A stretch of DNA of 64,000 nucleotides from Escherichia coli (GCF_050320075.1 NZ_CP190022.1); one strand, 5' to 3'; shown: positions 7,288-17,045, counted from the first letter of the stretch. Notes: a model not told the origin generated them from the sequence alone. Program-made: numbers and translations.

Positions 7288-7790
7288 CTTCGGCTCCCGG
7301 CTGCCTGGCGGCATCCGGTCGTCAGGCCCGACTACGACAGGCAGCTGCTGGCGCACCCGCCAGTCTCCGCCGAACCCGCTGGCGCGGTTTCGGGCTGTCG
7401 CTACGGTCCGATGCGTGAAAACCCGGGCTTGCAGCGACCGTTCCGGTCGCGCCGCCCCTGTCGCGCCGTGACCTGCGCTCCCTGCACACCTGACGGTGTG
7501 TGAGGAAACTGCGCCTGATGGCGCAGCAGTCTTCCCTCCTGCCGCCACCTCTGCGGCCTGTTTCCCGCTGTGGACTTTCCGGGGGGCAGACGTAACCCCC
7601 TCCCGTTCCATCTGTCCAGGGTGAGATGCACCGGCCACAAAATTTTTAGCCATGAACCCGGCTAAAAATTTTGCGTCCGCCCCCGGACAGCTGTCCCGTG
7701 AGGCGGTAAACGGGCCCCCATCGGAAAGGTCCACTGCGGGGAGAAACCCCTGTGAAGTGGACGGCAGGAGGAGCTTTCGCTCCTCTGAAG
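7288..7790 (+). repeat. Frpo/ssi-like single-strand promoter repeat, copy 1 (upstream of ssb)
   Basis: About 500 bp GC-rich non-coding block shared near-identically with 13641-14140 and (3' half) 16717-17045; contains long imperfect palindromes; ends about 60 bp before the ssb RBS. Confidence 0.7.
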
Positions 7791-7854
7791 GGGCACATGA
7801 ACGTCCCGTCGCCGGTATCCGGTTTATCTCACATCTTTCAGTCAGGAGGTTCTT

Positions 7855-8382
7855 ATGAGTGCACGTGGTATCAACAAGGTCATCCTCGTCGGGCGTCTGG
7901 GCAATGATCCGGAAGTCCGTTACATCCCCAACGGGGGCGCAGTGGCAAACCTGCAGGTGGCCACGTCAGAAAGCTGGCGCGACAAACAGACGGGGGAGAT
8001 GCGGGAGCAGACGGAATGGCACCGCGTGGTGCTGTTCGGCAAGCTCGCGGAAGTGGCAGGTGAATATCTGCGCAAGGGCGCGCAGGTCTACATCGAGGGG
8101 CAACTCCGTACCCGTAGCTGGGAAGATAACGGTATCACCCGTTACGTCACTGAAATTCTTGTTAAGACCACGGGCACCATGCAGATGCTGGGGAGTGCAC
8201 CACAGCAGAACGCTCAGGCGCAACCGAAGCCTCAGCAGAATGGGCAGCCACAGAGTGCTGACGCGACGAAAAAAGGTGGCGCGAAAACGAAAGGCCGTGG
8301 ACGTAAGGCCGCGCAGCCCGAGTCTCAGCCGCAACCGCCGGAGGGGGAGGATTACGGGTTTTCAGACGATATCCCGTTCTGA
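7855..8382 (+). CDS. ssb: Plasmid single-stranded DNA-binding protein
   Basis: OB-fold SSB N-terminus ([24 protein letters not shown]), Gly/Gln/Pro-rich linker and acidic C-terminal tail DDIPF; AGGAGG RBS. Confidence 0.95.
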
Positions 8383-8433
8383 CTGGCCTGACTGTGATAA
8401 CCGCCCCGCCCTGCGCGGGGCATCACCGGAGAT

Positions 8434-8673
8434 ATGAGGATGAGCGAATATTTCAGAATACTTCAGGGACTGCCTGACGGTCCTTTTACCCGCAAACAGG
8501 CCGAAGCCGTTGCCGCACAGTACCGGAACGTCTTTATCGAGGATGACCACGGCGAACATTTTCGCCTGGTTGTCCGTAATAACGGAACAATGGTCTGGCG
8601 TACCTGGAATTTTGAGGACGGTGCCGGGTACTGGATGAACCATGTCATCCGGGATTTCGGCATTCTTAAGTAA
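8434..8673 (+). CDS. Small conserved leading-region protein (79 aa), function unknown
   Basis: ORF between ssb and the ParB-like gene, as in F-type leading regions; RBS present. Confidence 0.6.
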
Positions 8674-8736
8674 GAGAGGTGCCGGACGGGAACGCGTCCG
8701 GCAGACATACAACCATCCCGGTCAAAGGAGAAATAT

Positions 8737-10695
8737 ATGTCAGTTACAGAGTCTAAGACAAAAACGGAGCGTAAATCCAGCCGTAAACCTGCAAAAACGC
8801 AGGAAACTGCACTGTCTGCCCTGCTGGCGCAGACGGAGGAAGTGAGCGTGCCGCTGGATTCACTGATTAAATCACCGCTGAATGTGCGCACGGTGCCGTA
8901 TTCTGCGGAGTCCGTCAGTGAACTGGCTGATTCCATTAAGGGAGTCGGCCTGCTGCAGAATCTGGTTGTTCATGCCCTGCCAGGTGACCGTTACGGTGTC
9001 GCCGCAGGTGGTCGCCGACTGGCAGCACTCAACATGCTGGCAGAGCGTGACATCATTCAGGCTGACTGGCCTGTCCGCGTGAAAATTATTCCGCAGGAGC
9101 TGGCGACGGCTGCATCGATGACCGAGAACGGTCATCGTCGGGATATGCACCCTGCCGAACAGATTGCCGGATTCCGCGCAATGGCGCAGGAAGGCAAAAC
9201 ACCTGCGCAAATCGGTGATTTGCTGGGTTATTCGCCTCGCCACGTTCAGCGAATGCTGAAACTGGCAGACCTTGCGCCTGTCATTCTCGATGCGCTGGCA
9301 GAAGACCGCATCACCACCGAACACTGTCAGGCGCTGGCGCTGGAGAACGACACCGCGCGTCAGGTGCAGGTGTTTGAAGCCGCCTGCCAGTCAGGATGGG
9401 GCGGTAAACCGGATGTGCGGGTTATCCGCAACCTGATTACCGAAAGTGAAGTGGCGGTGGCGGGGAACAGTAAATTCCGCTTCGTGGGGGCTGATGCCTT
9501 CTCGCCAGACGAACTGCGCACCGATTTGTTCAGCGATGACGGGGACGGTTATGTCGACCGCGTGGCGCTCGATGCCGCCCTGCTGGAAAAACTCCAGGCT
9601 GTCGCTGAACACCTTCGGGAAGCCGAAGGCTGGGAATGGTGCACCGGACGTATGGAGCCTGTCGGTGAGTGCCGTGAGGATGCCGGAACATACCGCAGCC
9701 TGCCGGAGCCGGAAGCGGTGCTGACGGAGGCGGAAGAAGAACGCCTGAACGAACTGATGGCACGTTACGACGCGCCGGAAAATCAGTGTGAGGAATCCGA
9801 CCTGCTGGAAGCAGAAATGAAGCTGATGCGCTGCATGGCGAAGGTCAGGGCGTGGACGCCGGAGATGCGTGCCGGAAGTGGCGTGGTGGTGTCCTGGCGT
9901 TATGGAAACGTATGTGTCCAGCGTGGTGTGCAGTTGCGCAGTGAGGATGACGTGGCTGACGACGCTGACCGCACGGAACAGGTGCAGGAGAAAGCGTCAG
10001 TGGAGGAAATCAGTCTGCCACTGCTGACGAAAATGTCTTCCGAACGCACGCTGGCAGTCCAGGCGGCACTGATGCAGCAACCGGACAAATCCCTGACACT
10101 GCTGGCATGGACGCTCTGCCTGAATGTGTTTGGCAGCGGAGCGTACAGTAAACCAGCACAAATCAGCCTGGAATGTAAACATTATTCGCTGACCAGCGAT
10201 GCGCCGTCAGGGAAGGAAGGTGCCGCATTCATGGCGCTGATTGCAGAAAAAGCCCGTCTTGCGGCCCTGTTACCGGAGGGATGGTCACGGGACATGACGA
10301 CATTCCTTTCACTCAGTCAGGAGGTGCTGTTATCCCTGCTCAGTTTCTGCACCGCGTGCAGCATCCACGGCGTTCAGACCCGCGAGTGTGGTCACACGTC
10401 ACGCAGCCCGCTGGACACGCTGGAGAGCGCCATCGGTTTTCACATGCGCGACTGGTGGCAGCCGACAAAAGCAAACTTCTTCGGACACCTGAAAAAGCCG
10501 CAGATTATCGCAGCCCTGAATGAGGCAGGATTGTCCGGTGCCGCACGGGACGCGGAGAAGATGAAGAAAGGCGATGCGGCTGAACATGCAGAGTTCCATA
10601 TGAAAGACAACCGCTGGGTGCCTGGCTGGATGTGTGCACCACGTCCACAGACGGATACCACTGAACGCACTGATAACCTGGCTGATGCCGCCTGA
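8737..10695 (+). CDS. ParB-like nuclease-domain protein of the leading region (652 aa)
   Basis: N-terminal ParB/Srx-type domain (VPLDSLIKSPLNVRTV...LLQNLVVHALPGDRYGVAAGGRRLAAL) with a helix-turn-helix segment; AAAGGAGA RBS; conserved position between ssb and psiB. Confidence 0.8.
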   Translation: MSVTESKTKTERKSSRKPAKTQETALSALLAQTEEVSVPLDSLIKSPLNVRTVPYSAESVSELADSIKGVGLLQNLVVHALPGDRYGVAAGGRRLAALNMLAERDIIQADWPVRVKIIPQELATAASMTENGHRRDMHPAEQIAGFRAMAQEGKTPAQIGDLLGYSPRHVQRMLKLADLAPVILDALAEDRITTEHCQALALENDTARQVQVFEAACQSGWGGKPDVRVIRNLITESEVAVAGNSKFRFVGADAFSPDELRTDLFSDDGDGYVDRVALDAALLEKLQAVAEHLREAEGWEWCTGRMEPVGECREDAGTYRSLPEPEAVLTEAEEERLNELMARYDAPENQCEESDLLEAEMKLMRCMAKVRAWTPEMRAGSGVVVSWRYGNVCVQRGVQLRSEDDVADDADRTEQVQEKASVEEISLPLLTKMSSERTLAVQAALMQQPDKSLTLLAWTLCLNVFGSGAYSKPAQISLECKHYSLTSDAPSGKEGAAFMALIAEKARLAALLPEGWSRDMTTFLSLSQEVLLSLLSFCTACSIHGVQTRECGHTSRSPLDTLESAIGFHMRDWWQPTKANFFGHLKKPQIIAALNEAGLSGAARDAEKMKKGDAAEHAEFHMKDNRWVPGWMCAPRPQTDTTERTDNLADAA

Positions 10696-16229: not shown

Positions 16230-16259
16230 CCTGGCATTCTGCCAGGCTGTGAATCACGC

Positions 16260-16511
16260 TCACACATCCTCTGCCGTTTCCCCCAGTTCATTTTCCAGTC
16301 GCCTGATGATATCTGCCTTACGCATCCCCTGCATGTGAGGCAGCAGGTCACGGACTGAAAGAGCCTGGGTGGTCCTCCAGACGGTGACGTCCACCTGTTC
16401 CGCATTTTCCCAGGCGTGCCATGTTCTCTGCGTCACGCCAAATTCTCTGGCCGCTTTTTCGCGTGACCAGAGCATGCTTTTTCGCCAGATTCGCAGTTCC
16501 CAGCCGGTCAT
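16260..16511 (-). CDS. Small helix-turn-helix transcriptional regulator (83 aa)
   Basis: Product contains an HTH-like segment (AAREFGVTQRTWHAWEN); sits directly next to two palindromic operator-like sites. Confidence 0.55.
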   Translation of the reverse strand: MTGWELRIWRKSMLWSREKAAREFGVTQRTWHAWENAEQVDVTVWRTTQALSVRDLLPHMQGMRKADIIRRLENELGETAEDV

Positions 16512-16527
16512 AAAACACCTTTGAAAA

Positions 16528-16611
16528 AGTGAAAAAACTTCACTTTATTTTATCATCATAATCATCAAATCAGCGCGATAAATAAGTGTGAAAAAGTGAA
16601 GAAATTTCACT
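16528..16611. promoter_or_regulatory. Two operator-like palindromes (AGTGAA-N5-TTCACT) in an AT-rich promoter region
   Basis: AGTGAAAAAACTTCACT at 16528-16544 and AGTGAAGAAATTTCACT at 16595-16611, each embedded in AAAAGTGAA...TTCACTTTT; immediately upstream of the minus-strand HTH gene start (16511). Confidence 0.45.
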
Positions 16612-16716
16612 TTTTTTTGATTGTGGGTGTCGTGCTGTTTTCTCTGTTTTCACCTGTGCGGGAGTGGTGTGCCAGTGACCACCACATGCCATTGTTGTGC
16701 CGTCGTTTTTCTTCAG

Positions 16717-17045
16717 TCGCGCCGGATGCGGCGCTCCCTGCACACCTGACGGTGTGTAAGGCCACTGCGCCTGATGGCGCAGCTGTCTCTGCCTGTCTGC
16801 CGCCGCACTGCGGCCCGTTTTCCGCAGACGGACTTTCCGGGGGTACATACACGACCACATCCCGTTTCAGTCGTCCAGGGGAGAGATGTACCAGCCACAA
16901 AACTTTTTGCCGCAGGCGTCAAAAACTTTTGCGTCTGCCCCCGGACAACTGCCCCGTGACGTGGTGAGCGTCCCCCGTCGGAAAGGTCCACTGCGGGGAA
17001 ATCCCCGAAGACCCGGACGGCAGAAGGAGCTTCGCTCCTCCGGGA
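16717..17045 (+). repeat. Frpo/ssi-like single-strand promoter repeat, copy 3 (5'-truncated; upstream of the 17089 ORF)
   Basis: Matches the 3' 330 bp of copies 1 and 2; ends about 45 bp before the 17089 start. Confidence 0.7.

Follow-up and report, generated by a model that had tools for sequence, protein, structure and literature searches.

Three repeats in the leading region of an IncI-complex plasmid as homologues of the ssi1-3 single-strand promoters

Repeats and the genes that follow them

We analyzed a 64,000-nt stretch of DNA from Escherichia coli (GCF_050320075.1, NZ_CP190022.1), referred to below as the window, in which all coordinates are counted from the first letter. The window includes the leading region of a conjugative plasmid of the IncI complex. 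Three dispersed direct repeats characterise this region, each located shortly before a plus-strand gene, which we compared with the Frpo and ssi single-strand promoters of conjugative plasmids. Many E. coli plasmids matched the first of these repeats and its flank at 99.8% identity, among them pIFM3804, typed as IncI-gamma/K1, MOBP and MPF_I. No PLSDB record covered at least 80% of window positions 1-22000. A direct-repeat search and MAFFT alignment defined the copies as follows:

7288 to ~7800, plus strand (direct): repeat copy 1
13641 to ~14150, plus strand (direct): repeat copy 2
16714 to ~17050, plus strand (direct): repeat copy 3, which is without the first ~170 nt common to copies 1 and 2

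A first-pass annotation made from the sequence had described these repeats as three near-identical GC-rich blocks, each preceding a plus-strand gene. The number and the direct orientation of the copies were confirmed, but "near-identical" was an overstatement: in blastn comparisons of the three copies, the ~330-nt cores showed pairwise identities of 80-87% (E-values 1e-72 to 1e-105), which is far beyond chance, and copies 1 and 2 were 95% identical to each other in their upstream 170 nt. The blocks were indeed rich in GC (63-65% in the cores and 72% in the 170-nt extension, versus 53-61% in most neighbouring 330-nt windows); the single neighbouring window with 64% GC overlapped a hairpin of a different class, described below. 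The expected plus-strand gene was also present in each case. It started 46-66 nt beyond the end of the repeat, was preceded by a ribosome-binding site, and was ssb (at 7855) for copy 1, a 144-aa open reading frame (ORF; at 14188) for copy 2 and a DUF4942 gene (at 17089/17092) for copy 3. The 0.5-kb unit is a composite of the 330-nt putative promoter hairpin and the 170-nt extension, which we designated module U.

Correspondence to ssi3, ssi2 and ssi1

As references we used the five Frpo/ssi sequences given in Supplementary file 4 of PMC11541004 (Supplementary Table 2 in its text), which were compared with the window by blastn. The alignment to known elements yielded full-length ssi matches, all on the minus strand:

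7458..7788, minus strand: ssi3, predicted class 1 single-stranded DNA (ssDNA) promoter, 99.7% identical to ColIb-P9 ssi3 (AJ238399:11381-11711)
13810..14136, minus strand: ssi2, predicted class 1 ssDNA promoter, 88.8% identical to ColIb-P9 ssi2 and 86.7% to ssi1
16714..17042, minus strand: ssi1, predicted class 1 ssDNA promoter, 98.8% identical to ColIb-P9 ssi1 (AJ238399:1459-1787) over all 329 nt

The F plasmid element ssiD (Frpo) matched all three copies as well, with 74-75% identity over the central ~80-135 nt. These similarities identify the repeats as the known elements ssi3, ssi2 and ssi1, the IncI1 homologues of F Frpo, and place them among the class 1 ssDNA promoters, as the first-pass annotation had supposed in reading them as hairpin-forming single-strand promoters. 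Its description of copy 3 as 5'-truncated did not stand: copy 3 contains the published ssi1 in full, and the absent part is only the separate upstream module.

The arrangement is also that of ColIb-P9 and pESBL, in which ssi1-3 occur in the same order outward from oriT and in the same orientation, with ssi3 before the ssb operon. The distance between ssi1 and ssi2 is ~2.9 kb both here and in ColIb-P9, whereas that between ssi2 and ssi3 is 6.35 kb here and 7.0 kb in AJ238399. A further difference from ColIb-P9 lies in copy 2, which carries an ssi1-type conversion tract over the apex. At informative sites the flanks of this copy were ssi2-type, while transferred-strand positions ~77-165 (window ~14060-13972) were ssi1-type. 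This tract of ~90 nt spans the apex hairpin and the TTGTGG motif and looks like gene conversion between repeats that lie 2.9 kb apart. The modular shuffling proposed at first pass is supported by this ssi2/ssi1 mosaic, and three Frpo-containing repeats were already aligned, and recombination among them documented, in 2013 (PMC3817090).

As single-strand promoters the three repeats are a rediscovery, having already been characterised in near-identical plasmids. As cited in later papers, the older reports describe Frpo as an ssDNA promoter and source of primer RNA (Masai and Arai 1997), three dispersed repeats in ColIb-P9 (Bates et al. 1999) and the dependence of ssi3 activity on secondary structure (Nasim et al. 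2004). For F, early expression was abolished by deletion of Frpo1 or Frpo2 (PMC9849209), and ssp1/Frpo transcripts were reported to prime conversion in vivo (bioRxiv 10.64898/2026.01.09.698686). For the IncI1 plasmid pESBL, a 2025 study (PMC12672017) reports six operons induced, up to ~500-fold, 15 min after mating; the promoters of three of them are ssi1-3 (class 1), with start sites mapped by 5' rapid amplification of cDNA ends, and class 2 promoters were mapped 5' of klcA and ardA. Sigma-70 transcription on ssDNA with stimulation by SSB, zygotic induction and primer function are reported variously for F Frpo, ColIb-P9 ssi3 and pESBL ssi1-3. In IncI-gamma plasmids, three operons are described as transcribed by ssi3-1, and the "ssi3 operon" as being under selection (PMC10104558).

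Gene order and the transferred strand

From left to right, the region contains parM-like genes, copy 1, ssb, DUF905, a ParB-like gene, psiB, psiA, a hypothetical gene, ardA, copy 2, the 144-aa ORF, small ORFs, an Rpn/YhgA-like gene, a minus-strand helix-turn-helix gene, copy 3, the DUF4942 gene, a minus-strand ORF, the oriT region, nikA and nikB. The principal features were placed as follows (the slash in the nick motif marks the putative nick):

7855..8382, plus strand: ssb, first gene of the ssi3 operon (ORF list and pIFM3804 annotation)
8434-8673, plus strand: DUF905 gene (ORF list and pIFM3804 annotation)
8737-10695, plus strand: ParB-like gene (ORF list and pIFM3804 annotation)
10747-11184, plus strand: psiB (ORF list and pIFM3804 annotation)
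11181-11900, plus strand: psiA (ORF list and pIFM3804 annotation)
12958..13458, plus strand: ardA, antirestriction gene (ORF end at 13458; start set by analogy with homologous plasmids, in which an ArdA gene of 501 nt is annotated)
14188..14622, plus strand: 144-aa hypothetical gene, the first after ssi2 (ORF list, annotation)
14989-15984, plus strand: Rpn/YhgA-like gene, further down from ssi2 (ORF list, annotation)
17092..17940, plus strand: DUF4942 gene, after ssi1 (Pfam PF13708, E = 1.3e-50; annotation)
18400..18515, minus strand: oriT region, with the putative MOBP-type nick motif CACATCCTG/TCCCG on the minus strand
18594-18926: nikA, immediately downstream of the oriT region
18938-21658, after nikA: nikB, likewise immediately downstream of the oriT region

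The minus strand at 18509-18500 reads CATCCTG/TCC, which resembles what we take to be the nick motif of MOBP-type plasmids, and the nick would accordingly be placed between 18503 and 18502. No oriT or nick feature is annotated in the RefSeq and PLSDB records of homologous plasmids. When ssi1 at 1459-1787 of AJ238399, the ColIb-P9 leading region, was mapped on copy 3, position 1 of that record corresponded to ~18500 of the window. Because nikA/nikB, the nick motif and oriT adjoin the repeats downstream, as judged from homology and motif, the minus strand is probably the transferred strand; it would enter the recipient 5' end first, from ~18.5 kb toward lower coordinates, and would be the template for all plus-strand leading genes. 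Minus-strand transfer agrees with reports on the IncI1 and F leading regions, and the same placement of nikA/nikB and the nick motif at ~18.5 kb supports the first-pass inference that the repeats are encoded on the strand that enters first. All three copies are located 1.5-11 kb from oriT on the first-entering side, and the genes downstream of them are all on the plus strand. Among the plus-strand operons the DUF4942 gene is nearest to oriT, and its template would therefore enter the recipient before those of the other operons.

Directly upstream of copy 3, positions 16580-16640 contain an A/T-rich hairpin (AAAAAGTGAAGAAATTTCACTTTTTTTT) that looks like a bidirectional terminator between the minus-strand helix-turn-helix gene and ssi1.

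Hairpin structure of the cores

Folding of the cores revealed a long, stable and strand-specific hairpin in the minus-strand ssDNA of each copy, in agreement with the first-pass proposal that the transferred strand folds (z -7.6 to -10.6 relative to dinucleotide shuffles). Minimum free energies were:

Copy 1 core (ssi3): minus strand -105.0 kcal/mol (z -10.6), plus strand -88.4 kcal/mol
Copy 2 core (ssi2): minus strand -109.6 kcal/mol, plus strand -92.8 kcal/mol
Copy 3 core (ssi1): minus strand -100.9 kcal/mol, plus strand -83.2 kcal/mol

The minus-strand folds were 16-21 kcal/mol more stable than the plus-strand folds; for the cores the difference was 16-18 kcal/mol, with z-scores of -8.2 to -10.6. 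As controls, 17 windows of 330 nt taken from this region ranged from -36 to -86 kcal/mol. One segment within the ParB-like gene (8990-9320) folded unusually well on both strands (-84/-83 kcal/mol), whereas the other coding controls gave -36 to -76 kcal/mol.

An RNAalifold consensus was calculated from nine elements, comprising the three window copies, two IncI ssi2 sequences (pIFM3804 and ColIb-P9) and four F-type sequences (from F and a Klebsiella IncFII plasmid). It contained 78 pairs, 22 of which showed compensatory changes between the I-type and F-type sequences. Cells with G·T pairs numbered 85 in the transferred-strand sense versus 5 in the opposite sense, the latter with 117 mismatches; this count is biased, as the structure was predicted on the transferred-strand alignment, while the free-energy asymmetry is free of that bias and has the same direction. 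Because of the energy asymmetry, the 22 compensatory pairs and the 85 versus 5 G·T cells, these data point to the minus (transferred) strand as the folded strand.

The conserved core, read 5' to 3' on the transferred strand, consists of GTCCGGGGG, an A/T-rich apex stem-loop, the duplex motif TTG(T/C)GG, an unpaired bulge of ~10 nt with the conserved sequence GT.CAT.T, and CCCC-T-GGAC, which pairs back to GTCCGGGG. For ssi3, the apex loop was located at 7652-7659, the -35-like TTGTGG at 7640-7635 of the minus strand, and the 10-nt bulge at ~7622-7632.

Promoter elements and the proposed mechanism

The TTG(T/C)GG motif that follows the A/T-rich stem was invariant in 9/9 elements. It lies on the 3' arm, and this would be the non-template arm for transcription directed from the apex toward the genes; the A/T-rich stem before it could act as an UP element. 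The class 2 element of this region, described below, has a more canonical TTGCAT ... TACGAT on its 3' arm (read by eye), which supports this arm assignment for class 1. The exact -35/-10 assignment is tentative; if the class 1 start is a few nt beyond TGGAC, we infer that the ssb leader would begin near 7695. A consensus scan of both strands of the ~770-bp intergenic regions (7000-7900 and 13400-14250) detected no sigma-70-like duplex promoter, a result that would fit single-strand-dependent expression.

Four lines of evidence from this analysis (identity to published elements, position and orientation, strand-specific covarying structure, and no predicted duplex promoter) make it very probable that the ~330-nt cores act as class 1 single-strand promoters for the leading operons of this plasmid. 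Promoter activity on ssDNA, mapped starts, zygotic induction and primer function are taken from the literature on near-identical sequences. The following sequence of events may be proposed. During conjugation the minus strand would be nicked at oriT and enter 5' end first, the segment from 18.5 kb down to 7 kb arriving first. Inside the recipient and still single-stranded, each core would fold into a long imperfect hairpin, in which the A/T-rich apex stem, followed on the 3' arm by the duplex -35-like TTGTGG and the unpaired bulge, would form a pseudo-duplex promoter. Host sigma-70 RNA polymerase would use this structure and transcribe down the 5' arm into the operon: from ssi3 into ssb, DUF905, the ParB-like gene, psiB and psiA, from ssi2 into the 144-aa ORF and the Rpn-like gene, and from ssi1 into the DUF4942 gene. 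Once the complementary strand is made, the hairpin would become a duplex, and expression would terminate itself because the duplex form contains no promoter.

Several points weigh against this interpretation. Promoter activity is known from related plasmids, and copy 2, as a recombinant, differs from every element tested in them. Homology and a sequence motif are the basis for placing the nick site and for taking the minus strand as the transferred one. The hexamer 15-17 nt past TTGTGG on the 3' arm is TGGAC(A/G/T), with a match of only 2-3/6 to TATAAT, and the 10-nt bulge distorts the spacer geometry and shortens the helical spacer. A linear scan of both strands of the cores found no TTGACA/TATAAT pair with at least 8/12 matches in copies 2 or 3, and the single such pair of copy 1 (GGGACA-18-CAAAAT) is absent from the other copies. 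A canonical -35/-10 pair could not be shown from the sequence. Assignment of a canonical -10 box by hand to either hairpin arm was also tried and dropped, only TTG(T/C)GG being convincingly conserved.

Another explanation is that the elements are mainly priming signals for complementary-strand synthesis and that gene expression is incidental. It was as ssi priming signals that members of this family were originally isolated. In vitro, Frpo transcripts can prime DNA synthesis, and in F the early conversion events downstream of ssp1a and ssp1b require transcription. However, every copy precedes a start codon with a ribosome-binding site at the short distance given above and is placed on the template strand of the operon; deletion of Frpo1 or Frpo2 abolishes early protein production (PMC9849209), and in pESBL induction of the downstream operons up to ~500-fold is reported (PMC12672017). 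We therefore consider this explanation improbable; the element more likely combines promoter activity with priming as an additional function, so that the two are not true rivals.

Even less probable is a role of the repeats as RNA, i.e., as structured 5' leaders in the plus-strand mRNA that control translation or stability. The last ~100-160 nt of each repeat are probably past the start site and contain conserved small hairpins, one of which shows a compensatory change between copies (GGAGCTTTCGCTCC versus GGGGCTTTCGCCCC). On the other hand, the main hairpin is more stable on the minus strand, the G·T cells favour that sense over the mRNA sense by the same 85 to 5, no Rfam family matched, and no duplex promoter was found upstream that could make such a leader. 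A permissive Rfam scan of 7100-7900 gave nothing above noise, with a best score of 17 bits compared with a gathering threshold of 41.

Long antisense ORFs extend across the repeats, as the first-pass annotation had noted in calling them spurious:

7030-7734, minus strand: antisense ORF of copy 1, 234 aa
13460-14083, minus strand: antisense ORF of copy 2, 207 aa
16713-17087, minus strand: antisense ORF of copy 3, 124 aa

Neither these three ORFs nor one sense ORF within copy 2 had a Pfam match. We give almost no credence to the view that the repeats are inert recombination scars, remnants of mobile elements or coding sequences for these ORFs: although some RefSeq and PLSDB records annotate a "hypothetical protein" across the repeats, and recombination between copies deletes or converts sequence, the antisense products of copies 1 and 2 are only 57% identical where the DNA is 82-95% identical, copy 3 retains that antisense frame for ~60 codons only, and a strand-specific covarying structure kept from IncI to IncF is unexpected of a scar. 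A coding function of the repeats was rejected on the Pfam result and the low amino acid identity, which also agree with the first-pass verdict, and long "hypothetical protein" ORFs over such repeats should not be called genes.

Class 2 homologue and related systems

A fourth element of the region belongs to a different class:

12597..12938, minus strand: homologue of class 2 (ssp2 or "Frpo3" type) ssDNA promoters, upstream of ardA, 78% identical to candidate Frpo'4 of PMC11541004

This sequence is homologous to regions upstream of klcA in F and pIFM3804, and its minus strand forms a long hairpin (z -5.8). The three repeats share no similarity with it and are not members of class 2. The three repeats thus do not organise the whole leading region, since ardA is preceded by this fourth, non-homologous element. 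Class 2 (ssp2, "Frpo3") and class 3 elements share the principle of the repeats: their hairpins serve as promoters solely while the transferred strand is single (PMC12672017; bioRxiv 10.64898/2026.01.09.698686). In F, class 2 is also a roadblock to complementary-strand synthesis, which sets it apart from class 1 as so far described.

Compared with pIFM3804 (L001 9836-14891), ~4.8 kb upstream of ssi3 are absent here at ~6580-7160. The absent segment contains the DUF1281, methylase, klcA and DUF1380 operons with class 2 and class 3 promoters, and only rearranged fragments of it remain near the parM-like genes.

Among known systems, F Frpo1 (ssiD) and Frpo2 (ssp1a/ssp1b) are similar in that they are long imperfect transferred-strand hairpins upstream of ssb and of an operon near oriT. 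They share with the repeats the A/T-rich apex, TTG(T/C)GG, the bulge GT.CAT.T and the CCCCTGGAC motif, but differ in the lower stem and the flanks, which are unrelated in sequence. A more distant parallel is provided by the minus-strand origins of the filamentous phages M13/f1 and the ssoA-type single-strand origins of rolling-circle plasmids, in which host RNA polymerase recognises promoter-like hairpins of ssDNA; these make only a short primer and drive no operons. To our knowledge, they share no sequence similarity with the repeats. The ssi elements have been called "functionally comparable to sso" (PMC7690428).

Single-strand promoters explain how anti-SOS, anti-restriction and ssDNA-binding genes are expressed within minutes, before the second strand is present, and such early expression helps resistance-carrying plasmids to establish in new hosts. 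For this plasmid the result is mainly one of annotation: three putative class 1 promoters and one class 2 homologue were placed, and the operons of the leading region delimited.

Module U

Of the features described here, only the extension carried by copies 1 and 2 is possibly new. On the transferred strand this GC-rich multi-helix element of ~170 nt follows the promoter hairpin on its 3' side, and the published 328-nt ssi does not include it. A covariance model built from nine sequences identified two copies in the leading region and none near ssi1:

7288..7457, minus strand: module U of copy 1, 95% identical to that of copy 2 (covariance model R1 match at 7285-7471, 181 bits)
13641..13809, minus strand: module U of copy 2 (covariance model match of 181 bits)

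At 95% identity or more, module U was present in at least 5000 PLSDB plasmids of both IncI and IncF types. Diverged forms were detected in plasmids of Klebsiella, Enterobacter, Raoultella, Salmonella and Serratia, at 1-5 places per record among the matches listed. Beside F Frpo1 and Frpo2 the module is reduced to a ~58-nt remnant with two small hairpins, corresponding to its first ~58 nt. Blastn detected 12 class 1-like regions in four diverged plasmids of F-like type, which came from Klebsiella, Raoultella, Enterobacter and Salmonella; on the transferred strand, a copy of the module lay directly 3' of 12/12 of them. Further copies, of ~170-190 nt, were located as follows:

Plasmid sequence L011: 4308-4501, 7016-7205, 13184-13376 and 16570-16763
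Plasmid sequence L012: three copies
Plasmid sequence L014: four copies
Plasmid sequence L013: one copy

An alignment of 17 sequences showed pairing in 99% of cells, and 17/40 pairs changed on both sides, a number reached in 0/500 shuffles and compared with at most 5 in slid controls; the alignment was fitted to the model, and with few lineages only a modest number of independent events is represented. The covarying helices include a long-range one, by which a multi-helix junction is closed. The G·T cells favoured the transferred-strand sense by ~13 to 1. Several unpaired motifs were invariant, including CATC(A/G)GAC, CCCGAAACC, GGGTTCGGCGGAG, GACGAC and GGAGCCGAAGG.

No match to module U was found in Rfam or in a phage collection, nor any description of it in the literature searched. 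Some of the 400-nt "Frpo*" candidates of PMC11541004 extend over half of the module. The possibility that the module is an antisense RNA or a duplex promoter was considered and set aside, as a promoter-like site was found on neither strand and the copies in this window lack the TTGAC motif seen in the diverged ones. Tentatively, module U may be a distinct, undescribed structured element of the transferred strand rather than a mere flanking repeat. Its function is a matter of speculation, and could be that of a barrier or insulator, or else of a priming or protein-binding site. Complementary-strand synthesis and transcription come from the later-entering side toward oriT and would therefore encounter module U immediately ahead of the promoter hairpin, for which reason we favour a role as barrier or insulator. 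Such a barrier would delay complementary-strand synthesis or read-through transcription and keep the promoter hairpin single-stranded for longer. The mechanism was established with prototypes that lack module U, F Frpo1/2 and ssi1 being the best studied, and any effect of the module on promoter strength, on timing or on strand conversion may thus have escaped notice.

Other structured and repeated sequences in the window

At gathering thresholds, the only Rfam matches in the whole window were a sok antitoxin RNA at 31603-31759 on the plus strand (124 bits) and AgrB at 26678-26765 on the minus strand (53 bits), both on the transfer-gene side of oriT. Two further direct-repeat families, unrelated to the ssi repeats, were also detected. 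One, at 49516-50346, consists of 56-164-nt units around 49.5-50.3 kb, and the other, at 59930-61118, of 50-nt palindromic units ~570 nt apart.

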